43,362 nt of DNA from Gammaproteobacteria bacterium (GCA_041493345.1 JBGPYQ010000002.1:1-43362); one strand, 5' to 3'; positions 1 to 42,187 are shown, counted from the stretch's first letter. The notes: a model not told the origin generated them from the sequence alone. Numbers and translations are program-made.

Positions 1-204
1 CACGCCGCCGCCCGCAGGACAGGCAACGACGATGCGCACCGGTTTGACGGGGAATGCCGGTCCCTTCGGCAGGCTCAGGGCAGGCTCTGAGCTTGTCGAA
101 GGGGCCTGTCCTGAGCTTGTCGAAGGGGCCTGCGCGAGCGCGGCAGCGCTGGCCGCCGTGGCGAGCAGGGCCAGGACGGATATCACGAAAAATCGCTTCA
201 TCAT
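1..204 (-). CDS. Bug/TctC-family tripartite tricarboxylate transporter substrate-binding protein, 5' part only (continues beyond base 1)
   Basis: Own minus-strand translation from ATG 204..202 (second ATG 201..199), with a GGAGAGGAG SD a few nt upstream. It reads MMKRFFVISVLALLATAASAAALAQAPSTSSGQAPSTSSEPALSLPKGPAFPVKPVRIVVACPAGGG. This is a signal peptide followed by the (Y/F)PxKPxRxxV..PxGG start shared with the other Bug paralogues. The frame is open to base 1. Confidence 0.55.
   Translation of the reverse strand, partial: MMKRFFVISVLALLATAASAAALAQAPSTSSGQAPSTSSEPALSLPKGPAFPVKPVRIVVACPAGGGV
55..129 (-). repeat. In-frame palindromic repeat insertion (about 1.5 element copies, 75 nt) at the signal-peptide/mature junction of the partial Bug gene
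   Basis: Plus-strand arms are cccttcggcaggctcag (62-78), ctgagcttgtcgaaggg (87-103) and a second ctgagcttgtcgaaggg (111-127). It encodes APSTSSGQAPSTSSEPALSLPKGPA between the AQ cleavage motif and FPVKP. Confidence 0.7.
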
Positions 205-3083: not shown

Positions 3084-3218
3084 CTAGAACTCATCTCAAA
3101 ATTCTCCCTCACCCCAACCCTCTCCCGGAGGGAGAGGGAGAATCACCCTTCTCCCCTCGGGAGAAGGGCCGGGGATGAGGGGAAACGACGACACGACATA
3201 TTTTGAGATGAGATCTAG
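3084..3218. repeat. MITE-like nested palindromic element with 19-bp terminal inverted repeats
   Basis: ctagaactcatctcaaaat (3084-3102) matches the reverse complement of attttgagatgagatctag (3200-3218) at 18/19 positions. The core carries the hairpins ccctctcc-cgga-gggagaggg and cccttctcc-cctc-gggagaaggg plus ccctcacccc / ggggatgaggg. Confidence 0.65.
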
Positions 3219-5034: not shown

Positions 5035-6027
5035 ATGAAAATCGTCGCACCGGTGATCGCTGCGCTGTTGTCGCTCGCGAGCGCAGCCGCCTTTGCGCAG
5101 GGCCCTTCGACAGGCTCAGGGCAGGCCTATCCCGCGAAACCGGTCAAGGTCCTGGTCGGCTTCGCCGCAGGGGGGCCGACCGACGTGATTGCGCGGATCG
5201 TCGCGCAGGACATGACCGCGTCGCTCGGCCAGAGCTTCATCGTCGAGAACAGGCCCGGCGCGAACGCGATCATCGCCACCGAGGCGGTGGCGCGCTCCGC
5301 TCCCGACGGCCATACGCTGCTGTTTTCCTCGCTCTCGCTCCTCGTGAACGCGATCCTGCTCGAGAACAAGGCCAAGTACGATCCGTTCAGGGACTTCGCG
5401 CCCATCAGCAACGCGGCCGTGCTGCCGATGGTGGTGGTGACGAGCCCGGAGACCCGGCTCAACGCGATGAAGGATCTCGTGGCGCTCGCCAGGGTGAAAC
5501 CCGGCGAGGTGAGCTACGGAACGTCCGGCAACGGCGGCTCGACGCATCTGGCCGGCGCGATGCTCGAAAACTTCACCGGCACGAAGATGATCAACGTTCC
5601 CTTCAAGGGCAATGGTCCGGCACTGGCCGAAGTGATGGCTGGACGCGTGACCTTCATGTTCTATCCCATCGTCGGCATCGCCGACCAGGTCTCGGCAAAG
5701 AGGCTGAAGGTGCTGGCGGTGGGTACGGCAAAACCCCACCCCGACTTTCCCTCGGTTCCCACCCTGGACGACGCGGGCTTTCCGGGATTCGACGAAACCG
5801 CGCCCTGGGTGGGCATGCTGGCTCCCGCCGGAACGCCCGCGGCGATCGTCAATCGCCTGAGCGACGAGATGCGAAAGTCGCTCGCCAGGCCCGAATCGAA
5901 GGAACGGTTCAAGGCGCTGGGCGCCATCACCGTCGGCGACACGCCCGCCGAATTTTCCGCTTTTCTGAAGAAAGATCACGAGCGCTGGGCGCGCGTCATC
6001 AAGGCTTCGGGGGTGACGGCGGAATGA
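5035..6027 (+). CDS. Bug/TctC-family substrate-binding protein
   Basis: 330 aa: signal peptide, then YPAKPVKVLVGF..GGPTD.., ..GTSGNGGSTHLAG.., ..VPFKGNGPA... GGAGGAG SD upstream. Confidence 0.93.
   Translation: MKIVAPVIAALLSLASAAAFAQGPSTGSGQAYPAKPVKVLVGFAAGGPTDVIARIVAQDMTASLGQSFIVENRPGANAIIATEAVARSAPDGHTLLFSSLSLLVNAILLENKAKYDPFRDFAPISNAAVLPMVVVTSPETRLNAMKDLVALARVKPGEVSYGTSGNGGSTHLAGAMLENFTGTKMINVPFKGNGPALAEVMAGRVTFMFYPIVGIADQVSAKRLKVLAVGTAKPHPDFPSVPTLDDAGFPGFDETAPWVGMLAPAGTPAAIVNRLSDEMRKSLARPESKERFKALGAITVGDTPAEFSAFLKKDHERWARVIKASGVTAE
5101..5127 (+). repeat. In-frame half palindromic element (27 nt) at the signal-peptide/mature junction
   Basis: ggcccttcgacaggctcagggcaggcc encodes GPSTGSGQA, inserted between AQ and YPAKP. 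It has the same left arm as the elements at 7331 and 15727. Confidence 0.7.
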
Positions 6028-7265
6028 AAGCGAACGATCTCGAAGCCGCGGCGGGCGCGCCGGCAACCGCAGCGTCCTCCTGCGCGATCTCGCGGCGCGC
6101 CTCCGCGCGCGTCCTGCGCGCCTGGAACATCGCGGACCTGCGCGGGATCGCGAAAAAGCGCCTGCCCCGCGCGGTGTTCGATTTCTTCGACGGCGGCGCC
6201 GAGGACGAATTGACGCTTCGCGACAACCGCGCCGCCTTCGAGCGCGTGCGTATTGCGCCGAGGGTGCTCGCCGGCGTGGCGCAGATCGACACGTCGGCCG
6301 CGATTCTCGGCGCGCGCTCGAAGCTGCCGATCACCGTCGGCCCCACGGGCGGCATCGGCTTCGGCTGGCCGTTCGCAGACGTCGGCATCGCGCGCGCGGC
6401 AGCCGCGGCCGGAATCCCGTATACGCTCTCGACCATGGCGACGTCCTCGATCGAGCGCATCGCGCGCGAGGCGGGCGGGCGCCTGTGGTTCCAGGCCTAC
6501 ATCTTCCGCCAGAGCGACATGACCCTGGGTCTCGTCGAGCGCGCGCGGCAGTTCGGCTACGAGGCGCTGATGGTCACGGTAGACGTCCCCGTGGGCGGCA
6601 AGCGCGAGCGCGACTTCCGCAACGATTTTGCGATCCGCTTCCGCTTTACGCCGAGGAACGTGCTCGATTTCGCCTCGCGTCCCGGTTGGGTGCTCTCGGT
6701 GCTCCGCCACGGCATGCCGGTGCTGGAAAACGTGGTGGATCTGGCTCCGGAGGCGAAAAGCACCGCCGAGATCGCGTCCTCGGTCGGGCAATTCTGGGAC
6801 GCGGGCTTCGACTGGGACGGCCTGAAGCGGATGCGCGACCGCTGGCCGGGGAAGATGCTCGTCAAAGGGATCCTCCGCGCCGACGACGCCGAGCGGCTCG
6901 CAGGCCTGGGCGTCGACGCGGTCGTCGTCTCCAACCACGGCGGGCGCCAGCTCGATGGTGCGGTCGCGGCGCTCGACGCGCTTCCGCCGATCGTGCGCGC
7001 GGTGAAAGGCAGGATGAGCGTGCTGGTGGACGGCGGCGTGCGCCGCGGCGTGGACGTGGTGAAAGCCCTCGCGCTCGGCGCCGATGCGGTCATGCTCGGC
7101 CGCGCAACCCTGTACGGCGTCTGCGCGGCGGGCGAAGCGGGCGCCGCGCGTGCTCTCGAAATCCTGCGCGACGAGCTGGTGCGCGCGATGCAGCTCTCCG
7201 GCGTGCGGACGGTGCGCGAGATCGGCGCGGATCTGCTCGCGCCGCTTTCTGGAGGCGGCAGATGA
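6024..7265 (+). CDS. FMN-dependent alpha-hydroxy-acid dehydrogenase/oxidase (LldD/glycolate-oxidase family)
   Basis: ..LPRAVFDFFDGGAEDELTLRDN.., ..VVSNHGGRQLDG.. and ..DGGVRRGVDVVKALALGA.. are present. ATG 6024 overlaps the upstream stop (ATGA). The N-terminal ~35 aa are atypical, so the true start could be further downstream. Confidence 0.85.
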   Translation: MKANDLEAAAGAPATAASSCAISRRASARVLRAWNIADLRGIAKKRLPRAVFDFFDGGAEDELTLRDNRAAFERVRIAPRVLAGVAQIDTSAAILGARSKLPITVGPTGGIGFGWPFADVGIARAAAAAGIPYTLSTMATSSIERIAREAGGRLWFQAYIFRQSDMTLGLVERARQFGYEALMVTVDVPVGGKRERDFRNDFAIRFRFTPRNVLDFASRPGWVLSVLRHGMPVLENVVDLAPEAKSTAEIASSVGQFWDAGFDWDGLKRMRDRWPGKMLVKGILRADDAERLAGLGVDAVVVSNHGGRQLDGAVAALDALPPIVRAVKGRMSVLVDGGVRRGVDVVKALALGADAVMLGRATLYGVCAAGEAGAARALEILRDELVRAMQLSGVRTVREIGADLLAPLSGGGR

Positions 7266-8272
7266 ACCGGATCGCCGCCCGTCTTGCAGCGCTCGCCGCC
7301 CCGTTGATCGCGTCAGCCGCTCTGGCCCAGGCCCCTTCGACAGGCTCAGAGCCTGCCCTGAGCCTGTCGAAGGGACAGGCGTATCCGGTCAAGGCGGTCC
7401 GCGTCATCGTGCCCTGGCCCGCGGGCGGCACTGTCGACGGCGTCGCCCGGGTCATCGGTCCAAGCCTCGCGGCCGGACTCGGCCGCCCGGTGGTCGTGGA
7501 GAACAAGGCGGGAGCGGGCGGCTCGATCGGTGAGGCGGAAGCCGCGAAAGCGCCCGCGGACGGCCACACGCTCCTTCTGGTGTTCGACACGCACGCCGTA
7601 AACCATCTCTTGTACAAAAACCTCGGTTACGATCCCTTTCAGTCCTTCGAGCACATCAGCCTGCTCGTGACGTCGCCGCAGGTGCTCGTCGGCGCGACCC
7701 ACTTCGCGCCGTCCACGATCACGGAGCTGGTGGAATTTGCGAAGGCCAACCCGGGAATAGTGACGTACGCCACGGTGGGCGCCGGCAGCTCGAACCATCT
7801 GAACGCCCTGCTGCTCGCGAACCGCACCGGCATCGACATGGTGCACGTGCCCTACAAAGGCGGCGCGCCGATGATGATCGACCTGGTCGGCGGCCAGGTG
7901 AACGTCATGTTCGTATCCGCGCCGCAGGCCATTCCGCAGGTCAAGGGCGGCCGCATCAAGGCGCTCGCGGTCGGAGCCGCGCGCCGCATCCCTCAGCTTC
8001 CCGATACGCCGACCGTCGCCGAAACACTTCCCGGGTTCGCGGCGCAATCCTGGGTGGGGATGCTCGTCCCCGCGGGCACGCCGAAGGAGATCGTCGCGCG
8101 GCTGCACGGCGAGGCCACCCAAGCGCTCGCCGGTCCGGAGGTGCGCGGGAAGCTGGCCGGCCAGGGCTTCGACGTCGTGGGGAGCACGCCCGGGGAGTTT
8201 CTCGCTTTCGTGCGCGCGGAGTCGGGCAAATGGGCGAAGGTGATCCGCGACTACCAGATCCGGGTGGAGTAA
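7262..8272 (+). CDS. Bug/TctC-family substrate-binding protein
   Basis: ATG 7262 overlaps the upstream stop (ATGA). The product starts MNRIAARLAALAAPLIASAALAQA.., followed by YPVKAVRVIVPWPAGG.., ..ATVGAGSSNHL.. and ..VPYKGGAP... The track ORF 6485..8272 is an out-of-frame extension into the upstream gene. Confidence 0.92.
   Translation: MNRIAARLAALAAPLIASAALAQAPSTGSEPALSLSKGQAYPVKAVRVIVPWPAGGTVDGVARVIGPSLAAGLGRPVVVENKAGAGGSIGEAEAAKAPADGHTLLLVFDTHAVNHLLYKNLGYDPFQSFEHISLLVTSPQVLVGATHFAPSTITELVEFAKANPGIVTYATVGAGSSNHLNALLLANRTGIDMVHVPYKGGAPMMIDLVGGQVNVMFVSAPQAIPQVKGGRIKALAVGAARRIPQLPDTPTVAETLPGFAAQSWVGMLVPAGTPKEIVARLHGEATQALAGPEVRGKLAGQGFDVVGSTPGEFLAFVRAESGKWAKVIRDYQIRVE
7331..7381 (+). repeat. 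In-frame complete palindromic element (51 nt, perfect 17-bp stem) at the signal-peptide/mature junction
   Basis: cccttcgacaggctcag (7333-7349) and ctgagcctgtcgaaggg (7358-7374) are exact reverse complements around an 8-nt loop. The element encodes APSTGSEPALSLSKGQA between AQ and YPVK. Confidence 0.8.
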
Positions 8273-12538: not shown

Positions 12539-13510
12539 ATGGACTTATATGAAGGCAATCGTTTTTGCAACATCGTGGCGGCGGTCGCCGTTCTCGCCGC
12601 GATGACCGGTGGGGTGTCCGCGCAGGAAAAAACCGTTGTGATGCTCGGCACGGCGACGCCGGGCGGCGGCTTCCAGATCTATGGCGCCGCGTACGCGGCC
12701 GCGCTCGGCGAGGCGGATGCGACGCTGGTGATCGAGCAGCGCAGCACCAAAGGCAGCACCGAGAACGTGCCGCTGCTCGCGGAAGGCAAGATCGACGTCG
12801 GCCTTGCCACCGGAGAAGTCACCTACGAGGCGCTCGCGGGCATCGGTCGTGCGCCTGTGAACCTGAAAATCATCAACGCGATGTATCCGAACTCCGGCAT
12901 GTTCATCGTGCGCGGCGACAGCCCGTATCGCACGCTCGCCGACCTGAAGGGCAGGCCGATCGCCTGGGGCGCGAGCGGTTCGGGCTTCGTGGTGCTTGCG
13001 CGCTACGTGTTTGACGGCCTGGGCATGGACATCAACAAGGATTTCACGCCGATCTTTCTCGAGCACGCCGGAGACGGCTCGAAGATGGTGCTCGACGGCC
13101 GCGCGGCGGCGCTGTGGGGCGGCGGGGTGGGCTGGCCGGGATTCGTCGAGATATCGAAAGCGCCGTCAGGCGCGCGCTTCATCACGCCCGACGCCGACGG
13201 CATGAAGCGCATCCTCGCGAAATATCCGTTCATCAAGCCGATCACGCTGCCTGCGGGCAGCTATCCCGGCCAGAATGCGCCGGTCGCGGCGCTCGGCTCG
13301 TGGTCGCTCGTGCTCGCGCGGCCGGGGCTGCCCGACGAAGTCGCCTATAAACTGGCACGCGCGCTTCACAAGGCCGAAGCGGCGCTCGGCGCGAAGCTCG
13401 CGCAGGCGAAGGAATCGACGCTCGCCAACACGCTCGCCGCCGCGCCGCGCCAGGATCTGATCCATCCGGGCGTGCTGCGCTACATGCGCGAAGCCGGCAT
13501 ATTGCGCTGA
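12539..13510 (+). CDS. TAXI-family TRAP-type solute-binding protein
   Basis: 323 aa: signal peptide, then ..VVMLGTATPGGGFQIYGAAYA.., ..STENVPLLAEGKIDVGLATGE.. and ..LPAGSYPGQ.., typical of TAXI (immunogenic-protein-type) receptors. Confidence 0.85.
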   Translation: MDLYEGNRFCNIVAAVAVLAAMTGGVSAQEKTVVMLGTATPGGGFQIYGAAYAAALGEADATLVIEQRSTKGSTENVPLLAEGKIDVGLATGEVTYEALAGIGRAPVNLKIINAMYPNSGMFIVRGDSPYRTLADLKGRPIAWGASGSGFVVLARYVFDGLGMDINKDFTPIFLEHAGDGSKMVLDGRAAALWGGGVGWPGFVEISKAPSGARFITPDADGMKRILAKYPFIKPITLPAGSYPGQNAPVAALGSWSLVLARPGLPDEVAYKLARALHKAEAALGAKLAQAKESTLANTLAAAPRQDLIHPGVLRYMREAGILR

Positions 13511-14600: not shown

Positions 14601-15596
14601 ATGAAGGTCTTTCGATTTTCCGTATTGCCGGTCGCGGCGCTGCTCGCCGCGGCGGCGTGCGCGGTCCATGCCCAGACCAAAGGCAGCGACGCGGCCGCCG
14701 ACTATCCGGCGAAGCCGATCCACATCGTCGTCGGCTTCACCCCCGGGGGCGGACCCGACATTACCGCGCGCTACATCGCGCAAAAGCTCGGTGAAACCTG
14801 GAAGCAGCAGGTTATTGTGGACAACCGGCCCGGGGCGGGCGGCACGGTCGCCGCCGGGCTGGTGGCCCGCGCAACTCCGGACGGCTACACGCTGCTCTCC
14901 GTGTCTTCGGCGCACGCCGTCGCGCCCGCGATCTACTCGAAGCTTTCCTACGATCCGTTCAAGGACCTCTCGGGCATCACCGAGACCGCGAGCTCCAGCT
15001 ACGTGCTGGTCGCCGCGCCCGCGCTCGGAATCCGGACGGTCGGCGACCTGATCGCGGCGGCAAAGGCGAAGCCCGGGCAGCTCAATTTCTCCTCCGCGGG
15101 CGTGGGCAGCGGCACGCACTTCGCCGCCGAGATGTTCAAGGCGATGGCGGCGATCGACGTGGTGCACGTGCCCTTCAAAGGCATACCCGAGTCGCTCACC
15201 GAGACGATGACCGGCCGCGTGCAGTTCTTCATGGCGCCGATAGCGAACGGAGTGAATCTCGTCAGGGACGGCAAGCTCGCCGGGCTCGCCGTTTCATCGG
15301 CGAAGCGCGACCCGCTTTTGCCGCAGGTGCCGACCGTCGCCGAAGCCGGCGTGCCGGGCTACGAGTCGATACTCTGGTTCGGGCTGCTCACGTCTTCCGG
15401 CGTGCCCAAAGCGATCGTGGTGAAGCTCAACCGCGAAATCGTGCGCATCCTCAACGATGCCGAGGTGTTGCAGCGCTGGACCCCGATCGGCCTCGAGCCG
15501 CGGCCGACGACCCCCGAGGCGTTCGACCAGCTGATCCGCGACGACGTCGCCGTCTTCACAAGAATCGCGCGCGCGGCGAACATCAGGGCGGACTGA
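14601..15596 (+). CDS. Bug/TctC-family substrate-binding protein
   Basis: ATG 14601 follows an AGGAGGAG SD. The product starts MKVFRFSVLPVAALLAAAACAVHAQ.., followed by ..DYPAKPIHIVVGFTPGGGPD.., ..SSAGVGSGTHF.. and ..VPFKGIPES... The track ORF start at 14292 is an unsupported extension. Confidence 0.92.
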   Translation: MKVFRFSVLPVAALLAAAACAVHAQTKGSDAAADYPAKPIHIVVGFTPGGGPDITARYIAQKLGETWKQQVIVDNRPGAGGTVAAGLVARATPDGYTLLSVSSAHAVAPAIYSKLSYDPFKDLSGITETASSSYVLVAAPALGIRTVGDLIAAAKAKPGQLNFSSAGVGSGTHFAAEMFKAMAAIDVVHVPFKGIPESLTETMTGRVQFFMAPIANGVNLVRDGKLAGLAVSSAKRDPLLPQVPTVAEAGVPGYESILWFGLLTSSGVPKAIVVKLNREIVRILNDAEVLQRWTPIGLEPRPTTPEAFDQLIRDDVAVFTRIARAANIRAD

Positions 15597-15657: not shown

Positions 15658-16671
15658 ATGAAATTCCCGACTCGGCTGCTGATTTTCGCGGTGGCGGCGC
15701 TTGTGTCCGGCGTGGTTCTTGCGCAGGCCCCTTCGACAAGCTCAGAGTCTGCCCTGAGCCCGTCGAAGGGACAGGCCTATCCGTCCAGGCCCGTGCGCCT
15801 GATCGTGGGTTTCCCGGCCGGAGGCCCGGCGGATCTGTTCGGACGCGTGCTCGCGCAGGCGATGGGCGCGAATCTCGGCCAGCAGATCGTGGTGGAGAAC
15901 AAGAGCGGCGTGGGCGGAGTGCTCGGGATTGACGCCGTGGCCAAGGCCGTCCCCGACGGCTACATGCTGGGGCTGAACAACCAGGGGTCCGTGGCGATGG
16001 CGCCGTTCGCGCTGTCGAGCATGCCCTACAACCCGCAGAAGGACCTCGCATTGATCACGACCGTGGTCAAGGTTCCCGAGGTTATCGTCGTGCATCCGTC
16101 GGTCCAGGTGAATAGCCTCGCCGAGCTCATCGCCTACGCCAGGGCGAACCCGGGAAAGGTCAACTACGGCTCCGCGGGAGCGGGCGGCATTACCCATCTC
16201 GCGGCGGAGCTGCTCAAGGCCGAGGCGAAAATCGATATCGTGCACGTGCCGTACAAGGGCGCGGCGCCCGCGGTGAGCGACCTGCTCGGCGGCCAGGTGC
16301 AGATGGGAATCTTCGACGTCCCGGTCGTTCTGCCGCACATCAGGTCGGGCAAGTTCAAGGCGCTCGCGGCGACGAGCGCCAGGCGCGCGCCGTCGCTGCC
16401 CGATATCCCGACCACGGGCGAGGCCGGTTATCCCAAAGTAATTTCCGACAATTGGTACGGCCTCGTTGCGCCGGCGAAAACGCCGGCGGACGTGCTCAAG
16501 CGAATTCACGCCGCGGCGATCGCGGCGCTGCAATCGCCCGCGCTCCTCGATCAGTTCGCCAAGGTGAGCGGAATCGCCTTTCCTTCGACGCCGGAAGAGT
16601 ATGCCGTTTTCCTCTCCGAGGAGCAGGCCAGGTGGAGCGCGATCATCGGGGCGATCGGGTTCAAGGAGTAA
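15658..16671 (+). CDS. Bug/TctC-family substrate-binding protein
   Basis: ATG 15658 (MKFPTRLLIFAVAALVSGVVLAQA) follows a GGAGGA SD. Then YPSRPVRLIVGFPAGGPAD.., ..GSAGAGGITHL.., ..VPYKGAAPA... Confidence 0.92.
   Translation: MKFPTRLLIFAVAALVSGVVLAQAPSTSSESALSPSKGQAYPSRPVRLIVGFPAGGPADLFGRVLAQAMGANLGQQIVVENKSGVGGVLGIDAVAKAVPDGYMLGLNNQGSVAMAPFALSSMPYNPQKDLALITTVVKVPEVIVVHPSVQVNSLAELIAYARANPGKVNYGSAGAGGITHLAAELLKAEAKIDIVHVPYKGAAPAVSDLLGGQVQMGIFDVPVVLPHIRSGKFKALAATSARRAPSLPDIPTTGEAGYPKVISDNWYGLVAPAKTPADVLKRIHAAAIAALQSPALLDQFAKVSGIAFPSTPEEYAVFLSEEQARWSAIIGAIGFKE
15727..15777 (+). repeat. In-frame complete palindromic element (51 nt) at the signal-peptide/mature junction
   Basis: cccttcgacaagctcag (15729-15745) pairs with ctgagcccgtcgaaggg (15754-15770), giving a 17-bp stem with 2 central mismatches. 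The element encodes APSTSSESALSPSKGQA between AQ and YPSRP. Confidence 0.8.
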
Positions 16672-16736
16672 GGCCCTTCGACAAGCTCAGGGCGAACGGT
16701 CATTCAAGAGCCCGTTCGTGGTGAGCTTGTCGAACC
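16672..16736. repeat. Intergenic full-length palindromic element of the same family (possible bidirectional terminator)
   Basis: ttcgacaagctca (16677-16689) pairs with tgagcttgtcgaa (16722-16734), and the inner cgaacgg (16693-16699) pairs with ccgttcg (16712-16718). It lies between convergent genes (Bug stop 16671, SDR stop 16749). Confidence 0.7.
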
Positions 16737-18433: not shown

Positions 18434-18466
18434 CGTCGGGTCGCTTGTGCAGGACTCTCTGCTATT

Positions 18467-18499
18467 CCCTCTCCCTCGGGGAGAGGACCAGGGTGAGGG
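18467..18499. repeat. ccctctccc/gggagagg + gggtgaggg palindromic repeat (same family as the core of 3084-3218, opposite orientation)
   Basis: ccctctccctcggggagaggaccagggtgaggg lies between the Bug stop (18506) and the amidohydrolase start (18433). Compare ccctcaccccaaccctctcccggagggagaggg at 3107-3139. Confidence 0.6.
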
Positions 18500-20452: not shown

Positions 20453-20608
20453 GCGCGACCGTCACGATAATCGAAAAGAATCAATCGGTGCAATCCGGGC
20501 CGACCGGAAGGCAACCCTCGCGGCCCTAAATGGGATCTATCGTTTTTTCATCCGCTGGACGCTACAATCGCGGGTGCCAAGGATGATCCTCCGCGGCCCC
20601 GCGAGGAA
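20453..20608 (+). repeat. Direct repeat copy 1 (156 bp) bracketing the DarAB-like cassette
   Basis: 20453-20494 matches 26768-26809 (42 bp, 1 mismatch). 20495-20608 matches 26940-27052 (4 substitutions + 1 indel, counted by hand). Confidence 0.85.
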
Positions 20609-20657: not shown

Positions 20658-20685
20658 TTCACAACGTGGCGGCAGGCGATAAAAT
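20658..20685 (+). promoter_or_regulatory. Candidate sigma70 promoter giving a leaderless or near-leaderless darA-like transcript
   Basis: TTCACA (20658-20663), a 16-nt spacer, then TAAAAT (20680-20685), which ends 7 nt before ATG 20693. There is no Shine-Dalgarno between them. Confidence 0.3.
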
Positions 20686-20692
20686 TCAATAC

Positions 20693-21610
20693 ATGAAACG
20701 CGTACTGGTTGTTCATTTTTCGCAAACGGGGCAGCTCGCGCGCGTAATACGGCAATTGGTGTCGCCGCTGGCGTTGGCTGCGGACGTGGAGCTGGTGGAG
20801 GAGGTGCTGCGCCCGCGTCAGCCGTATCCGTTTCCCTGGCCGTTCTGGAGTTTTCTAGACGTCATGCCGGACACCGTGCTGCTCGAACCGCCGGTGCTCG
20901 AACCGCTGTCGGTGCGCGCGGGCGAGCATTTCGAGCTCATCGTGCTGGCGTATCAGGTGTGGTATCTAGCGCCCTCGGGTCCGATGACGGCGTTTCTCAA
21001 GAGCCGGACCGGCCAGCAACTGTTACGTGGCCGACCGGTGGTGACGGCGATCGCGTGCCGCAACATGTGGTTGATGGCGCAGGAGACGGTCAAGCGACTG
21101 ATCCAGGATGCAGGCGGGCAGTTGCGCGACAACGTCGTCTTCACCGACCAGGGGAGCGCGTTGGCGACCTTCATTACTACACCGCGCTGGTTGCTGACCG
21201 GTCGGCGCGACGCGTTCTGGGGCCTGCCGGCGGCGGGCGTGGCGGAGGAGGAGATCGCGAATGCCGATCGCTTCGGTAGCGCGCTGCTGAGCGCCCTGCG
21301 CACAGATCGCGAGCGCGAAAACGCGCCGATGCTCGCCGGTCTGGGCGCCGCGAGCGTGGACTCACGGCTGATTTTCAGCGAGTGTGCCGGGCAGCGCGCG
21401 TTTTCGGCATGGTCGCGCTTGATCCGTTTCGGCGGGGCGCCGGGTTCGACAGGCCGCTCACTGGTGCTCGCGTTGTTTTGCGTCTATCTTGTTGCGATGA
21501 TACTTACTGTTGTGCCGGCGAGCCTGCTGTTGCAGCGGTTGATGCGTCCGCTGTTCGCGGGGCGACTGGAATTGCAAAGGGCGTACTACGAGTTGCCGTC
21601 AGGGCGATAA
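20693..21610 (+). CDS. darA: DarA-like protein (flavodoxin-like N-terminus, C-terminal TM helix), putative dialkylresorcinol-pathway partner of the adjacent KAS III-like enzyme
   Basis: It starts MKRVLVVHFSQTGQL.. (flavodoxin-like beta1-loop) and has ..ELIVLAYQVWYLAPSGPM.. and a hydrophobic ..LVLALFCVYLVAMILTVVPASLLL.. near the C-terminus. It lies immediately upstream of a DarB-type ketosynthase. The family call is from memory of DarA annotations and is not verified. Confidence 0.55.
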   Translation: MKRVLVVHFSQTGQLARVIRQLVSPLALAADVELVEEVLRPRQPYPFPWPFWSFLDVMPDTVLLEPPVLEPLSVRAGEHFELIVLAYQVWYLAPSGPMTAFLKSRTGQQLLRGRPVVTAIACRNMWLMAQETVKRLIQDAGGQLRDNVVFTDQGSALATFITTPRWLLTGRRDAFWGLPAAGVAEEEIANADRFGSALLSALRTDRERENAPMLAGLGAASVDSRLIFSECAGQRAFSAWSRLIRFGGAPGSTGRSLVLALFCVYLVAMILTVVPASLLLQRLMRPLFAGRLELQRAYYELPSGR

Positions 21611-26767: not shown

Positions 26768-27052
26768 GCGCGACCGTCACGATAATCGAAAAGAATCAAT
26801 CGGCGCAATATACCAGCGAGCGGTTTGATGGCGCTGGCGAAGAATGGATCTTCCGGTCCTTTGTTTCCTGAAGCTTCACCCGCTCGCCCGCAGACACCGC
26901 TGCCTGGCGGCGCCTCGCCCCAACGTCAAACACCGCCTTCCGGGTCGACCGGAGGGCAACCCTCGCGGCCTAAATGGGATCTATCGTTTTTTCATCCGCT
27001 GGACGCTACAATCGCGGGTGCCAAGGATTATCCTCAGCGGCCCCGCGAGGAA
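26768..27052 (+). repeat. Direct repeat copy 2, split by a 130-bp insertion (26810-26939)
   Basis: See copy 1. 26768-26809 and 26940-27052 are the homologous parts. It lies immediately upstream of the DUF2846/beta-barrel gene. Confidence 0.85.
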
Positions 27053-27083
27053 AACGAGGAAAAAACAGGATGGAGATCCGCCC

Positions 27084-28136
27084 ATGAATCAGCTGCGCGC
27101 ATGCCTTTCGGTGAGCGGCGCTCTCTTGCTCGCCGGTCTGTTTTCTGCCCCGCCCGCGCACGCCCAGGACGATGCCCGGCAGGCCACCCCGCCGCCCGGC
27201 AAGGCGCTGGTGTTCGTTTTTCGCAGCGAGCGTGAGCCGGTAGCCGCGCGGGTGCCGGTGCTCGTGAATCTGGAGCCCGTCGGCGAGCTGGAAAACGGCA
27301 CCTTCACAACCGCGACCGTCAGTCCGGGAAGGACTCACCTGCGTGTCGGCGATCGCGTGCTGACCATAATCTCGCTCGAGGCCGCGGCCGACCAGAGCTA
27401 TTTCGTGTGGGTTGAGGCCCTCGCCGGCCTGACGCCGGTGCGAACAGAGGTGCGTGTGGTGAGCGAATCCGAGGGTCGCCGCTCGATCGCGCAAAGCCGC
27501 TTCGTCGAGGTCGCGCCGGCGACGAGGGCCGTCGCGCCGCGCTCCCAGCAGCCGATCTACGCCGCCAAGCCTGCTGCAACGCAACCGGCAGCTGCCCGGA
27601 CGATACCCGCCTCCACAGAGTCGGGCCGCGACTGGGACTTTGCGCTCATCGCGAACGGGGGTACGTTCAAATTGGCCAATGGCAACCAGGTGATCGCCGG
27701 CCTCGCAAGTACCTACGATACGACTTCCAATCCCGTATTCGGTGTTGAGGCCGAGTGGCGCAGCAAGACGGGCATTGCCGTGGGCGGCGAGGTCTTTTAT
27801 TACAAGAATGATCTGGTCGCGACCGGAACCATTCTCAGTGGCCAGCAGGAAGTGCTCGCATTAATGGTGAACGGAAAGTATTACTTCCGCGCGGCAAGCT
27901 GGTTCTATCCTTTCGTGGGCGCCGGTATCGGTTCCGCCACTGCCACCTATAGTGGTGACATCACGGGGACGGGGACAGGTCTGGCTTATCAGGGCCTGGC
28001 GGGCGCGGAATTCCGCTTCGAGCACGTCGGTCTCTATGTGCAGTACAAGCGTCTTTCCTCCACCACCGGGAGTTCCGGCAAAGAGGTGAAGGTCGGCGGC
28101 AGCGGTATTCTTGCCGGAGTAAGTATCATCTTCTGA
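27084..28136 (+). CDS. Outer-membrane protein: N-terminal DUF2846-like domain fused to a C-terminal 8-strand-type beta-barrel
   Basis: ATG 27084 starts MNQLRACLSVSGALLLAGLFSAPPAHAQ (signal peptide). ..GKALVFVFRSE..GTFTTATVSPGRTHLRV..SYFVWVEA.. is DUF2846-like. An A/P/Q-rich linker follows, then alternating-hydrophobic strands ending ..GILAGVSIIF (terminal Phe). Confidence 0.75.
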   Translation: MNQLRACLSVSGALLLAGLFSAPPAHAQDDARQATPPPGKALVFVFRSEREPVAARVPVLVNLEPVGELENGTFTTATVSPGRTHLRVGDRVLTIISLEAAADQSYFVWVEALAGLTPVRTEVRVVSESEGRRSIAQSRFVEVAPATRAVAPRSQQPIYAAKPAATQPAAARTIPASTESGRDWDFALIANGGTFKLANGNQVIAGLASTYDTTSNPVFGVEAEWRSKTGIAVGGEVFYYKNDLVATGTILSGQQEVLALMVNGKYYFRAASWFYPFVGAGIGSATATYSGDITGTGTGLAYQGLAGAEFRFEHVGLYVQYKRLSSTTGSSGKEVKVGGSGILAGVSIIF

Positions 28137-38621: not shown

Positions 38622-40403
38622 GTGAAAATGCAACGATCGCTGCTTCTCGCGCTCGGCGCGATCCTGTTCGCACCGATTACGGCGTTGGCGCTGCCGACCT
38701 GCACGGAGCTCAGGGACAACCCCGCGTACGGCTTGGCGGGACGCCCGGACGTCCTCAATCTCACGGCAAGCCTGACGACCACCGGAGCCAACGCCCGCTG
38801 CGAGATCAATTTCATCTATTCGTCGCGGGGCGGGCCGGAATTTGGTTACGACGAAGGCGAGAAGCAACGCGTGGCCATACGGATTGGGCTGCCCCGCAAC
38901 AGCCTCGATGGCGGCACGGGCGGCGTCGAGGGCGCCTGGAATGGACGCACGCGTGCGCTTGGCGGCGGGGGCTGCGTCGGCTCGGTCGGTGCGGTCACTT
39001 CAGCCACCAGCACGGGATACGCAGGCTCCTCGACCGATTCCGGTCACGTCGGCGGCGACTGTCTGTTCGCCCTGCAGCCCACTCCCACCCGGTTGAACGT
39101 CGGCAGGCTTAATGACTTCATCGTCGACAGCCTCCTCGCCCAGGTGCGCTGGTCCAAGGTCATCGCCGAGACCTATTACGGGCTGGTGCCGGCGCGCAAT
39201 TACTGGGATGGCTGCTCGACTGGCGGGCGCCAGGGCTTCGCGCTCGCGCAGAAATATCCGGAAGAGCTGGACGGCTGGCTCGTCGGCGCGCCGGGCGTCA
39301 ATTACGGGCGCTTTCGCCTCGCACAACTCTGGGGACCGATCGCGATGAAGGATCTCGCGGGCGGGCCGATCTCCTCAGCCAAGACCAACCAGGCCACCGC
39401 CTCGGCGACCGCCGCCTGCGATGCTGCTGACGGCGTGATCGACGGCATCATCAACGAGCCGCGCAGCTGCAAGTTCAGCGCCAAAGCCAACGTCTGCGGC
39501 GAGCCGGGCGCGCCGGCGACCAACTGCCTGACGCCGCAGGAGGCTGCCGCGATCGACCTGATCTGGGACGGGCCGCGCAATACCTACGGCAAGCAGGTCT
39601 TTCCGGGACTGTCGCGCGGCGCGCAGATCAGCGCGCTGAGCGGCACCACGCCTTCGCAGACCGCGACCAGCCAGCTGCAGTGGAACCACTCGGATGCGAG
39701 CGTCGACTGGCACACGCTGACGCTGGCAGACTACGGCAGCGAAGCGCAGCTCGGCTCCAATACGACCGGCGACATCATCAACACGAACGACGTACGGCTC
39801 GAGCGCGTGAGGAATGCCGGCAAGAAAATCCTCATGTGGCAGGGCACCGCCGACCAGCTGATCACCGACGCGAACTCGGTGGACTACTACATCCGCGTGG
39901 CCGCGTACTTCGGCAAGGGCACACCGGATTTCGGCGTGCTGCAGCCGTGGTTCCGCTACTTCCGGGCGCCCGGGGTCGCGCATTGCGGCGGCGGCAGCGG
40001 ACCGCAGCCGCAAGCGCTGTTCGAGACGATGGTGAACTGGGTGGAGAATCGCGTCGCGCCAGAAACAATCCTCGCCTCGGGCGGCGGCCGCACGCGCCCG
40101 CTGTGCCCGTTCCCGCAAACCGCCGTCTACAACGGCTCTGGCAACCCGAATCTGGCCAGCAGCTTTACCTGCGGCGGGAACGTGCAGACGAAGGACAACG
40201 TCTGCCAGGCCATCGTCACCAAGTACAAGCACGAGAGCGAAGACGACCTTCAGGCTTACGGCAAGTACAATCCCGCCGCTTGCAACGAGAACTCGAAAGT
40301 GCCGCTCGACGGCCAGCCCGGCACGCATGCCGTGGTCGCCGTGGACTACGCGGCTGACCCGGACGGCATCGACCGCAACGTCAATACCGACAGCAACGAG
40401 TGA
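38622..40403 (+). CDS. Tannase/feruloyl-esterase family alpha/beta hydrolase (MHETase family), secreted
   Basis: It has a signal peptide, the nucleophile motif GCSTGGRQG, ..WQGTADQLI.. (Asp), ..APGVAHCGGG.. (His) and ..RPLCPFPQTAVYNGSGNPNLASSFTC... The start is GTG 38622 or ATG 38628, after an AGGAG SD. Confidence 0.88.
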   Translation: MKMQRSLLLALGAILFAPITALALPTCTELRDNPAYGLAGRPDVLNLTASLTTTGANARCEINFIYSSRGGPEFGYDEGEKQRVAIRIGLPRNSLDGGTGGVEGAWNGRTRALGGGGCVGSVGAVTSATSTGYAGSSTDSGHVGGDCLFALQPTPTRLNVGRLNDFIVDSLLAQVRWSKVIAETYYGLVPARNYWDGCSTGGRQGFALAQKYPEELDGWLVGAPGVNYGRFRLAQLWGPIAMKDLAGGPISSAKTNQATASATAACDAADGVIDGIINEPRSCKFSAKANVCGEPGAPATNCLTPQEAAAIDLIWDGPRNTYGKQVFPGLSRGAQISALSGTTPSQTATSQLQWNHSDASVDWHTLTLADYGSEAQLGSNTTGDIINTNDVRLERVRNAGKKILMWQGTADQLITDANSVDYYIRVAAYFGKGTPDFGVLQPWFRYFRAPGVAHCGGGSGPQPQALFETMVNWVENRVAPETILASGGGRTRPLCPFPQTAVYNGSGNPNLASSFTCGGNVQTKDNVCQAIVTKYKHESEDDLQAYGKYNPAACNENSKVPLDGQPGTHAVVAVDYAADPDGIDRNVNTDSNE

Positions 40404-40414
40404 GGAGCACGACC

Positions 40415-42187
40415 ATGCAACGACGACTGATTGCGTCTTCCGGGATCGCGCTCGGCGCGATGCTGTTAGCACCGGCAACCGCGTTGGCGCAGATGAGCTG
40501 CACGAACCTCGGCGCTTATCTGGCAGCACAGCCGCCTGTGGCTCAGGTCAACGCCACGACGCCTCTGACCACGCTGACATCGACCGGAACGAGCCCCCGC
40601 TGCGAGGCCAACTTCATCTATTCCACGCGCGGCGGCACGGCCGACGGCTACGCTGAGGGCCAGAACCAGCGCATCGTGCTTCGCATCGGCTTGCCACGCA
40701 ACAGCATCGACGGCGGCACGGGAGGCGTGCAGGGCGCCTGGAACGGCAAAGTGCAGAATCTCGGCGGCGGCGGCCTGGTCGGCAATGTCGGCGGGGTCAC
40801 CGCCGCGACCAATGCCGGCTATGTTGGCTCGTCGACCGACTCAGGTCACCCGTCTTCGGAGAACCCCAACTTCGCAGTCGTGCAGGCGACGCATACCCTG
40901 AATTACGGCAGGCTCGACGACTTCCTCATCGAAAGCCTGCGCCAGCAGTACCAATGGGCACTCGGGCTCGGCAAGACCTATTACGGCATGCCCGCCACGC
41001 GCAATTACTGGAACGGCTGCTCGACCGGCGGCCGCCAAGGGCTTTCGCTCGCGTTGAACCACGGCGCAGACTTTGATGGCTTCCTCGTCGGCGCGCCGGC
41101 CAACTACAACACGCGCCTGCAGGTCATGACGCTGTGGCCCTGGTGGGTCAACAAGGACATCGCGAACAATTCCGTCACCAGCGCCAAGTTCGCCGCCGCC
41201 AACGCCTCGGCGATCGCGGCTTGCGACGCCATTGACGGCGTGGTGGACGGCATTCTCGGCGATCCGCGCAAGTGCACTTTCGATGCCAACGCCAACGTCT
41301 GCGGCCAGCCCGGCGCGCCGGCGACCAATTGCCTAACGCCGCAGGAAGCGCAGGCGATCAATATGATGTGGGACGGGGCGCGCAACGACAAGGGAACGCG
41401 CATCTGGTTCCCGTTCGAGCGCGGCGCGAATGCGAGCGTCTCGTCGAGCGCGACCTGCGGCAACCTCGGCTCGCAATGCTGGGCTCACAGGGACACCACG
41501 TTCGACTGGCACCCGCTGCCGCTGTCACAGTTCGACGATGAAACGGAGCTGGCGACCCGGGTGGTCGCTCCCTACAGTGACATCATGAGCACCGCGTTGC
41601 AGGCGGCAAGGGACAGGGGCGCGAAGATCCTGATGTACCACGGCGGCGCCGATCCCCTCATTCCGCATCGCCAGTCGATTCACTACTACAACGAGGCGAT
41701 GGCAACGTTCGGCGGACTCGACCAGTTGACGCCCTGGTTCCGCTTTTTTGTGGCGCCGGGCATGGGCCATTGCAGCGGCGGCGTCGGGCCGCAGCCGCAG
41801 AACCTGTTCGGCGTGCTGGTGGACTGGCTCGAAAACGGCAACGCTCCGGACAGCATTCTCTCGACGAACACGAGCGGCGGGGTCGTCACCCGCAGCCGTC
41901 CGCTTTGCCCGTGGCCGCAGACCGCGATCTACAACGGCTCGAGCGACCCGAACAACGTGAGCAGCTTCCATTGCGGTGGCAACGTCGAAACCAAGGAAAC
42001 CGCCTGTCTCGCGCTGATTGCGAAGTTCCAGAAAGAGACCTCGAACGCCTACGACACGTCCGGACGGCGCAATCCGGCGACCTGCAACGAGAACTCGAAC
42101 GTGCCGCTCGACAAGCTGCTCGATCCCAAGGCGGTGAAGGCGGCGGATATCCCGGCTGACGACGTCGCTGAGCGCGTCGAGGAATAA
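40415..42187 (+). CDS. Tannase/feruloyl-esterase family alpha/beta hydrolase, tandem paralogue
   Basis: ATG 40415 (MQRRLIASSGIALGAMLLAPATALAQ) lies 7 nt after a GAGGAG SD. It has GCSTGGRQG, ..YHGGADPLI.., ..APGMGHCSGG.. and ..RPLCPWPQTAIYNGSSDPNNVSSFHC... Confidence 0.88.
   Translation: MQRRLIASSGIALGAMLLAPATALAQMSCTNLGAYLAAQPPVAQVNATTPLTTLTSTGTSPRCEANFIYSTRGGTADGYAEGQNQRIVLRIGLPRNSIDGGTGGVQGAWNGKVQNLGGGGLVGNVGGVTAATNAGYVGSSTDSGHPSSENPNFAVVQATHTLNYGRLDDFLIESLRQQYQWALGLGKTYYGMPATRNYWNGCSTGGRQGLSLALNHGADFDGFLVGAPANYNTRLQVMTLWPWWVNKDIANNSVTSAKFAAANASAIAACDAIDGVVDGILGDPRKCTFDANANVCGQPGAPATNCLTPQEAQAINMMWDGARNDKGTRIWFPFERGANASVSSSATCGNLGSQCWAHRDTTFDWHPLPLSQFDDETELATRVVAPYSDIMSTALQAARDRGAKILMYHGGADPLIPHRQSIHYYNEAMATFGGLDQLTPWFRFFVAPGMGHCSGGVGPQPQNLFGVLVDWLENGNAPDSILSTNTSGGVVTRSRPLCPWPQTAIYNGSSDPNNVSSFHCGGNVETKETACLALIAKFQKETSNAYDTSGRRNPATCNENSNVPLDKLLDPKAVKAADIPADDVAERVEE

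Follow-up and report, generated by a model that had tools for sequence, protein, structure and literature searches.

The window analysed here is a stretch of 43,362 nucleotides (nt) assigned to a Gammaproteobacteria bacterium (GCA_041493345.1, JBGPYQ010000002.1:1-43362; G+C 64.9%), and it holds ten genes for Bug (TctC, PF03401) periplasmic solute receptors. Four of these ten genes carry 27, 51, 51 or 75 extra in-frame nt, which in each case follow the terminal Gln of the signal peptide and precede the conserved (Y/F)P at the start of the mature domain. We read the inserts, with a probability of roughly 70%, as copies of a short, GC-rich, non-autonomous palindromic repeat that landed independently in the Bug genes and that persist there as a disordered extension of the receptor.

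The Bug set of the window comprises nine complete open reading frames (ORFs) and one that runs off the window start, and Pfam recognises the host genes with E-values from 1e-59 to 1e-77 and bit scores of 200-260 against a cut-off of 27. Translation of the window genes gave four insert-bearing and six insert-free junctions and the four insert peptides listed in Table 1, just as an earlier note on this DNA had described them. The arm CCCTTCGACARGCTCAG occurs nine times in the window with at most one mismatch, compared with 0.25 occurrences expected from shuffles, and 0 of 100 shuffles reached 10 matches. Eight of the nine arms lie within four Bug genes at the Gln/(Y/F)P boundary, while the ninth belongs to an intergenic palindrome at 16672-16736, and the description of the inserts as copies or half-copies of one palindrome therefore holds. 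The earlier note had also placed the same arms in that intergenic element, which is correct for the first arm, which is identical, and incorrect for the second, which has diverged to GTGAGCTTGTCGAACC and is accompanied by an extra inner stem (GGCGAACGG/CCGTTCGTGG). This long form starts one base past the TAA of the Bug gene at 15658-16671, and that gene thus has members of the repeat family at its 5' end (in frame) as well as at its 3' end. Folding of the copy at 7333-7374 returned the perfect 17-bp stem that had been claimed for it, closed by an 8-nt loop (dG -40.2 kcal/mol, z -6.25); the copies at 15727-15777 (-31.1, z -4.7) and in the 75-nt insert (-41.9, z -4.4) also fold, and the 27-nt half copy has no structure (z +0.7). 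A fifth carrier Bug gene was found on a sister metagenome contig, immediately to the left of the window (L001:2171-3190, SHSTSSEPALSPSKGQA), and when the window and this contig are taken together five of the six sites are intragenic. The TAXI-like binding protein gene at 12539, the sole other signal-peptide gene of the window that was examined, has no insert.

The different lengths of the insert can be described by four modules, namely the arm X (CCCTTCGACARGCTCAG), the loop Y' (AGCCTGCC), the second arm X' (X inverted) and a tail Y with the sequence (G/A)CAGGC (Y' inverted). A full element is approximately 48-51 nt long. The 51-nt form reads GC-X-Y'-X'-Y, the 27-nt form is X-Y and lacks, relative to the full form, the 24 nt made up of the loop and one arm, and the 75-nt form has an X-Y ahead of X-Y'-X'-Y, so that the 24-nt unit is duplicated in tandem. 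Because the X/X' and Y'/Y modules interleave, alternative pairing registers would be permitted, and these plausibly drive the rearrangements. No part of the window matched Rfam at the gathering score, and two relaxed local scans yielded nothing but generic miRNA-hairpin noise that scored far under the cut-offs; the GTAG/CGTC tag by which repetitive extragenic palindromic (REP) sequences are recognised is absent beside the arms in all aligned copies. In seven metagenome contigs (L245, L247, L250, L253, L258, L261 and L265) the core palindrome is nested in an outer inverted repeat (GCGGACACT .. GCAGGCTTTGTCCGC), which is a larger composite version of the element.

Table 1 Palindromic inserts, repeat arms and host genes in the window.
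Feature	Coordinates	Strand	Remarks
51-nt insert, peptide APSTGSEPALSLSKGQA	7331..7381	+	between Gln23 and Tyr41 of Bug gene 7262-8272
Insert core, perfect 17-bp stem and 8-nt loop, then tail ACAGGCG	7333-7374	+	
Host gene, Bug/TctC periplasmic solute receptor, 336 aa	7262..8272	+	PF03401, E 3.9e-70, domain from residue 61
27-nt half form, peptide GPSTGSGQA	5101..5127	+	one arm and tail GGCAGGCC, no hairpin; Bug gene 5035-6027
51-nt insert, peptide APSTSSESALSPSKGQA	15727..15777	+	Bug gene 15658-16671; stem with 2 mismatches
75-nt insert, peptide APSTSSGQAPSTSSEPALSLPKGPA (APSTSSGQA + PSTSSEPALSLPKGPA)	55..129	-	24-nt half unit in tandem with full palindrome
Bug gene hosting the 75-nt insert	start near 201-204, off window start	-	full gene on sister contig L001:4034-5077
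Long intergenic form of the repeat family	16672..16736		extra inner stem, second arm diverged
Arm CCCTTCGACARGCTCAG, at most 1 mismatch	62-78	+	
Arm CCCTTCGACARGCTCAG, at most 1 mismatch	87-103, 111-127	-	
Arm CCCTTCGACARGCTCAG, at most 1 mismatch	5103-5119, 7333-7349, 15729-15745, 16674-16690		
Arm CCCTTCGACARGCTCAG, at most 1 mismatch	7358-7374, 15754-15770	-	

Several anciently diverged Bug genes acquired their copies independently. The mature parts of the carrier paralogues are 33-45% identical, which is the same range as for carriers against non-carriers, and their tree is star-like. Over the 60 nt past the junction the identity is 61% between carriers and likewise 61% between carriers and non-carriers. 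When the comparison was widened to 13 distinct carrier Bug genes, taken from the window, L001, L160 (a Burkholderiales metagenome-assembled genome, MAG), L224 (a Betaproteobacteria MAG), L249, L254, L255, L262, L266 and L273, the proteins were 33-54% identical and were interleaved with insert-free genes in a neighbour-joining tree, with inserts that are 82-98% identical in DNA (mean 90.6%). Host divergence, tree and flank identities together exclude two simpler histories: a single ancestral insertion followed by gene duplication was rejected on the grounds that the paralogues are ancient and the carriers do not form a clade, and long gene-conversion tracts were rejected since the downstream flanks are equally identical in carriers and non-carriers. 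Differences among the 13 inserts fall on codon positions 1, 2 and 3 in the proportion 16:9:13, with 25 non-synonymous and 13 synonymous changes, and their stems have 0-3 mismatches; neither the insert peptide nor the hairpin looks strongly constrained.

The state of the junction in close relatives shows that the insert of the gene at 7262-8272 is a recent insertion. Of its 119 best full-length orthologues (79-88% identical), 118 have an empty site reading ..AQ^YP(S/A/N)KP(I/V)R, where ^ marks the junction, and the exception, P0219, has a half form, VTSTGSGQA, at the same site. Short N-terminal protein queries yielded fragments only, and the orthologue set was supplied by full-length and profile searches; none of 65 short orthologous fragments carries the insert. 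At the DNA level three states can be aligned, namely the empty GCTCAA^TATCCG and the same site with 27 or with 51 additional nt. The locus was recovered, via its neighbouring genes, on two JGI metagenome contigs and in one NCBI MAG. The JGI contig, which matches the window at 99.86% identity over 15.8 kb, retains the 51-nt form, whereas the allele in the MAG (GCA_041483095.1) has the 27-nt form between flanks identical to those of the window; the resulting 336-aa and 328-aa proteins share one 90% cluster. This strain-level 51/27-nt polymorphism makes the dynamics of the element directly testable in metagenomic time series. The proposal in the earlier note that a palindrome had repeatedly been inserted at tolerated in-frame sites is upheld by the empty orthologues, by the two alleles and by the 13 diverged carriers. 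The same data bear on the view that a Bug subfamily simply inherited the segment from its common ancestor as an ordinary linker, and that the palindromic signature of the DNA is incidental. Natural linkers do occur at this junction, for instance QTKGSDAAAD^YP in the gene at 14601, but we find this view scarcely credible, since the inserts are about 90% identical in DNA against about 40% protein identity of their hosts, orthologues have empty sites and do not share the segment, the carriers are not a clade, and an identical palindrome is present in other phyla and genes (see below).

Two further differences between strains were seen at the window start. Positions 1-226 are only 95.1% identical to L001:4877-5102, while the next 15.8 kb are 99.86% identical, and this divergent patch is a local mosaic or divergent segment that covers the 5' end of the insert-bearing Bug gene there. 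A second GC-rich palindromic family (CCCTCACCC..CCTCTCCC..GGGAGAGGG..GGGTGAGGG) is located at 3106-3139, 18466-18499 and approximately 190-225, and at L001:5103-5195. This second family is also polymorphic between strains, since the stretch of it found upstream of the minus-strand Bug gene is about 93 nt longer on the sister contig than in the window.

The palindrome is by no means confined to Bug genes or to one phylum. In an arm-loop-arm scan of species-representative genomes the hosts among the matches listed include Anaerolineae, Aquificaceae, Leucothrix, Vineibacter, Acidobacteriaceae, Binatia, Burkholderiales, Dehalococcoidia, Desulfobacteraceae, Agreia, Oscillochloris, Ignavibacteriae and Bacteroidetes. 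The phyla with the same palindrome include Acidobacteriota, Chloroflexota and Proteobacteria, and the element is more than 90% conserved from Acidobacteriota to Betaproteobacteria. At least 28 copies have the 8-nt loop, many of them with the AGCCTGCC loop of the window and a one-sided (G/A)CAGGC tail, and a Leucothrix MAG holds dozens of copies. Pfam confirmed in-frame copies in POR_N, LarC (Ni_insertion), NDH-2, alpha-amylase and aconitase-family genes of these genomes, and two TctC genes among them have the insert at the signal-peptide junction. An exact-match scan of metagenomes, with flanks ignored and in a collection that excludes the source samples, gave 29 contigs, and in 16 of the 29 the copy is in frame inside an identified gene. 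Eight contigs (seven distinct genes) represent Bug junction inserts of the form AQ(A/T/D/G)^PST..KGQ(A/T)^(Y/F)P, and the other eight in-frame copies reside in homoserine dehydrogenase (two contigs), TruB, a GT2 glycosyltransferase, an RNase HII-like protein, CHAD, RNase H and DUF5320. For the homoserine dehydrogenase, TruB, GT2 and CHAD proteins the in-frame position was confirmed by Pfam. The two homoserine dehydrogenase contigs, L253 and L258, are different and have the element at the identical place; the TruB copy (L256:5068-5109) is inside the TruB_N domain. All of the approximately 20 verified intragenic copies are read in the frame xPSTxS..ALS(L/P)(S/P)KG, and none of them uses the other open frame, PFD(K/R)LRACPE(L/P)VEG. 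The orientation is constant in all Bug copies, with the tail toward the YP side. These scans show that in-frame and junction-located insertions are in large excess among the copies elsewhere. The earlier note had named a lack of such an excess as evidence against its reading.

Searched with a profile, 1.84 billion representative proteins yielded many further Bug N-termini bearing half forms or arrays that reach at least four ASTSSGQA units, as well as a permuted form, ASTEPVLSLSKGSGQA. Seven 'Bug' proteins in this search (P0327, P0337, P0343, P0349, P0351, P0353 and P0360) have two N-termini joined by ..GGR(V/T)GSRRGG.CWGGDGA..., and resemble chimeras from fold-back assembly or the read-through of a different inserted repeat. 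The long form was found in 59 plasmid or chromid records at 236 places, mostly with no annotated feature beneath the match, on replicons of Sphingobium, Comamonas, Moraxella, Polaromonas and Methylotuvimicrobium; a plasmid BLAST with the short form gave essentially nothing. In viral contigs the single arm is very common, and among the matches listed it is usually one arm followed by GGCGAACGG, GGCAGGC or GACAGGC, sometimes arranged in tandem arrays.

Could the copies in Bug genes go back to one or a few founding insertions that were spread by short-homology recombination or gene conversion at the junction codons (GCNCAGGC .. TAYCC), and not by transposition? The invariant orientation would fit, and so would the presence of five carriers inside 20 kb and of many similar targets, as Bug genes number in the hundreds in some genomes (PMC5994714). 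Flank alignments further show that, on average, about 4 of 5 positions of the left flank, CA(G/A)(G/A)N, agree with the CAGGC tail of the element itself, an agreement that could reflect microhomology-guided templated insertion or a target preference and could equally reflect common AQA codons. We nevertheless consider such a spread unlikely, since beyond about 5-8 nt the carrier flanks are no more alike than those of carriers and non-carriers, which is far below what RecA-type conversion needs, and since the element is also present in unrelated enzymes and in intergenic DNA of phyla with few or no Bug genes.

For the receptor itself the consequence appears to be a longer N-terminal tail. In every insert-bearing gene an intact signal peptide with its ATG lies in frame upstream of the insert, and in 13 distinct Bug genes the frame is open from the signal-peptide-like N-terminus through the insert. 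Shine-Dalgarno sequences were found in the two genes that were checked (GGAGG 5 nt before the ATG at 7262 and GGAGGA before 15658), and the ATG of the gene at 7262-8272 overlaps the stop codon of the upstream gene (ATGA). The N-, h- and c-regions of the signal peptide are visible by eye, e.g. in MNRIAARLAALAAPLIASAALA^QA. Proline at position +1 blocks signal peptidase I. Together with the -3/-1 rule this would place cleavage at A-x-A^Q, and the insert would then occupy mature positions +2 to +18. An AlphaFold2 model of the 7262 product, built from a 42-sequence alignment, has a confident Bug fold with a mean predicted local distance difference test (pLDDT) value of 87.9; residues 14-34 have values below 50, the insert covers residues 24-40, and the first element of secondary structure is a strand at residues 46-50. 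With Foldseek about 295-300 columns, i.e. the mature domain only, align to BugD, BugE, TphC and the Ideonella terephthalate-binding protein (target-normalised template modelling score 0.93-0.94 to 2F5X, 2DVZ and 8HKB), and in solved structures the Bug fold begins only at the YP motif. The insert is hence predicted to be a disordered N-terminal tail outside an intact Bug fold.

These data also bear on the suggestion that the insert is an untranslated 5' leader of a protein with a downstream start, or an artefact of assembling a hairpin. According to Di Nocera et al. many N-terminal REPs are annotation artefacts (PMC3733652), which lends the suggestion some weight. It is highly improbable all the same, because the ATG and the full in-frame signal peptide precede every insert; because a start downstream of it, where the fold begins at YP, would leave a truncated and non-exported receptor; because the sequence recurs in independent JGI and NCBI assemblies; and because other in-frame copies lie in the middle of enzymes. 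The downstream start that the earlier note had named as its own possible refutation was accordingly not borne out.

A different question is whether the insert is useful to the Bug receptors, be it as a flexible linker, as a Ser/Thr-rich modification site (e.g. for general O-glycosylation of Ser/Ala/Pro tracts of low complexity) or as an mRNA hairpin that would delay the ribosome just past the signal-peptide codons. Usefulness would account for the recurrence of site, orientation and frame in at least 13 unrelated Bug genes and for the many further Bug N-termini with one to at least four tandem ASTSSGQA units; the hairpin is very stable, and no other secreted family appears among the matches listed with flanks ignored. 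We regard it as quite unlikely, given that 118 of the 119 orthologues dispense with the insert. The hairpin is dispensable too, as the 27-nt forms have lost it, including the strain-level allele of the gene at 7262-8272, and as it has decayed to 2-3 mismatches in other copies, while the peptide varies through non-synonymous changes at all codon positions and an identical peptide is present in cytoplasmic enzymes. We infer that the insert is retained in the mature protein and is near-neutral there.

The sequence of events that we propose for the independently landed repeat copies is the following. Copies would enter Bug genes at the codon boundary between Gln and Tyr or Phe, where the Gln is presumably the first residue past the signal-peptidase cleavage (A-x-A^Q) and the Tyr or Phe opens the YPxKP(I/V)R start of the fold, and our best guess is that insertion is a sequence-guided or microhomology-guided event at ..CAG(GC)^TAYCC. 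Such copies would persist because their length is a multiple of three, because their frame is free of stops and benign, with small flexible residues, and because the site is a free N-terminal tail. Since length, frame and site tolerate the copy, it would be translated, and the mature periplasmic protein would bear it as a disordered extension. Later on, drift would introduce stem mismatches and non-synonymous changes, and rearrangement would produce the 27-nt form by loss of the loop and one arm or, alternatively, duplicate the 24-nt unit in tandem.

Several observations weigh against this proposal. No transposase, clean target-site duplication or parent element was found, and mobility is deduced from the distribution of copies only. 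The 36 intervals between pairs of elements, where a RAYT (TnpA_REP) gene would be expected in a REP system, showed no transposase-like ORF, although this is a weak test, judged by eye only and without a Pfam scan; the one plasmid match annotated as 'transposase' is incidental (Trichlorobacter, 57% coverage, E 0.09), and no systematic search for a parent insertion sequence (IS) was made. Alignment of the empty GCTCAA^TATCCG with the filled CAG-(51 nt)-TAT reveals no duplicated bases. The CAGGC beside YP was considered as a candidate target-site duplication and found to be unsupported, both by this alignment and by the one-sided tails of intergenic copies: as these have CAGGC on one side only, the motif belongs to the element. 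A 5-nt duplication of CAGGC would still be conceivable if the ancestral site had been AQA^YP. In addition, Bug junctions are hit and no other secreted protein is found among the approximately 57 copies listed with flanks ignored, and neither the constant orientation in all Bug copies nor the single reading frame of the verified intragenic copies is explained by permissiveness of the site alone. These three features, i.e. Bug-only junctions, constant orientation and a single frame, point to a targeting rule or to selection on the peptide.

A tentative extension of the proposal, possible although we would not call it probable, is that the element is a coding-compatible mobile module, conserved across phyla, with its own sequence-guided route into Bug Gln^Tyr junctions and enzyme surface loops, always in the one frame that encodes a harmless peptide of Ser, Thr, Gly, Pro and Ala, and that the resulting tails have possibly been co-opted as variable-length linkers. 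The route might, for example, rely on a transposase acting on a single-strand hairpin, or on microhomology at ..CAGGC^TAYCC that templates the insertion. If true, such a module would be a bacteria-wide counterpart of the Rickettsia palindromic elements (RPEs). Should a targeting rule or an enzyme underlie the inserts, they would represent a new route from selfish DNA to variation in protein length, and the junction would be a possible natural insertion site for N-terminal tags on periplasmic receptors.

RPEs, attributed to Ogata et al. 2000, are reportedly about 100-150 bp long, confined to Rickettsia and situated in frame in protein genes. Like them, the present element is a palindromic repeat, in frame in many unrelated genes, that contributes a peptide outside the fold, is presence/absence polymorphic between relatives and has no known transposase. 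It differs from them in the length of the inserts (27-75 nt), in its hosts (a betaproteobacterial MAG and many phyla), in being more than 90% conserved across many phyla and in its strong preference for one site in one family, and it is probably unrelated to them in sequence. The earlier note had named RPEs as the only precedent, which is too narrow, as intragenic REPs of the GTAG/CGTC super-families have been described in several species by Di Nocera et al. 2013 (PMC3733652) and intragenic small repeats in enterobacteria by Delihas 2007 (PMC2759123).

The intragenic REPs resemble the present element in being short GC-rich palindromes inside known genes, with REP monomers or dimers that encode 10-30 aa and an excess of N-terminal positions (PMC3733652). 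Insertions of REPs and RPEs have been noted repeatedly in truB of other species (PMC3733652), and the TruB gene on L256 carries the present element. More than half of the sampled exact short-form copies are intragenic, compared with a small minority of REPs, and unlike many N-terminal REPs the N-terminal copies described here are demonstrably coding. With REPs and the doublets formed by them (REPINs) the element also shares the short palindrome in many copies (17-bp arms), whereas their mostly extragenic location, 3' of genes, holds for the long form and fails for the short form. Neither the sequence of the element nor its peptides occur in the text or the supplementary tables of Di Nocera et al. 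(PMC3733652).

Similarly to transposable elements of the miniature inverted-repeat type (MITEs) and other small mobile sequences of bacteria (PMC2759123, PMC2229807, PMC3184786, PMC10969869), the element is small and non-autonomous, has inverted symmetry, and is intragenic and peptide-contributing. MITEs, however, have a non-palindromic core enclosed by terminal inverted repeats, are flanked by a target-site duplication and can usually be assigned to a parent IS; none of these features was found for the present element, although no systematic search was aimed at the parent IS. The hosts are typical Bug/TctC receptors (PF03401; BugD 2F5X, BugE 2DVZ, TphC 7NDR) in sequence, in predicted fold and in forming large paralogous clusters. 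In the literature searched we found no mention of repeat-derived N-terminal tails in Bug proteins, and literature string searches with the arm sequence and all three frame peptides returned no relevant publication. What is new here is that the element is conserved across phyla, is intragenic in a high fraction of its copies, is read in a single frame and recurs at the Bug junction. Palindromes that colonise genes in frame are commonly treated as a speciality of Rickettsia, supplemented by a few REP cases, and the present element takes the phenomenon well beyond these. For annotators it is of practical use that the element yields characteristic spurious or extended ORFs (PFDKLRA.., LRQAQ.., ..SLSKG) that can be recognised.

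Two repeats of another kind were noticed elsewhere in the window. An 84-nt intergenic direct repeat, 98% identical, is present at 20525-20608 and 26969-27052, upstream of the ORFs at 20666-21610 and 26844-28136, and may be a shared regulatory region. Finally, tandem paralogues of approximately 594 aa are encoded at 38622-40403 and 40400-42187, with DNA that is 72-75% identical over long stretches.

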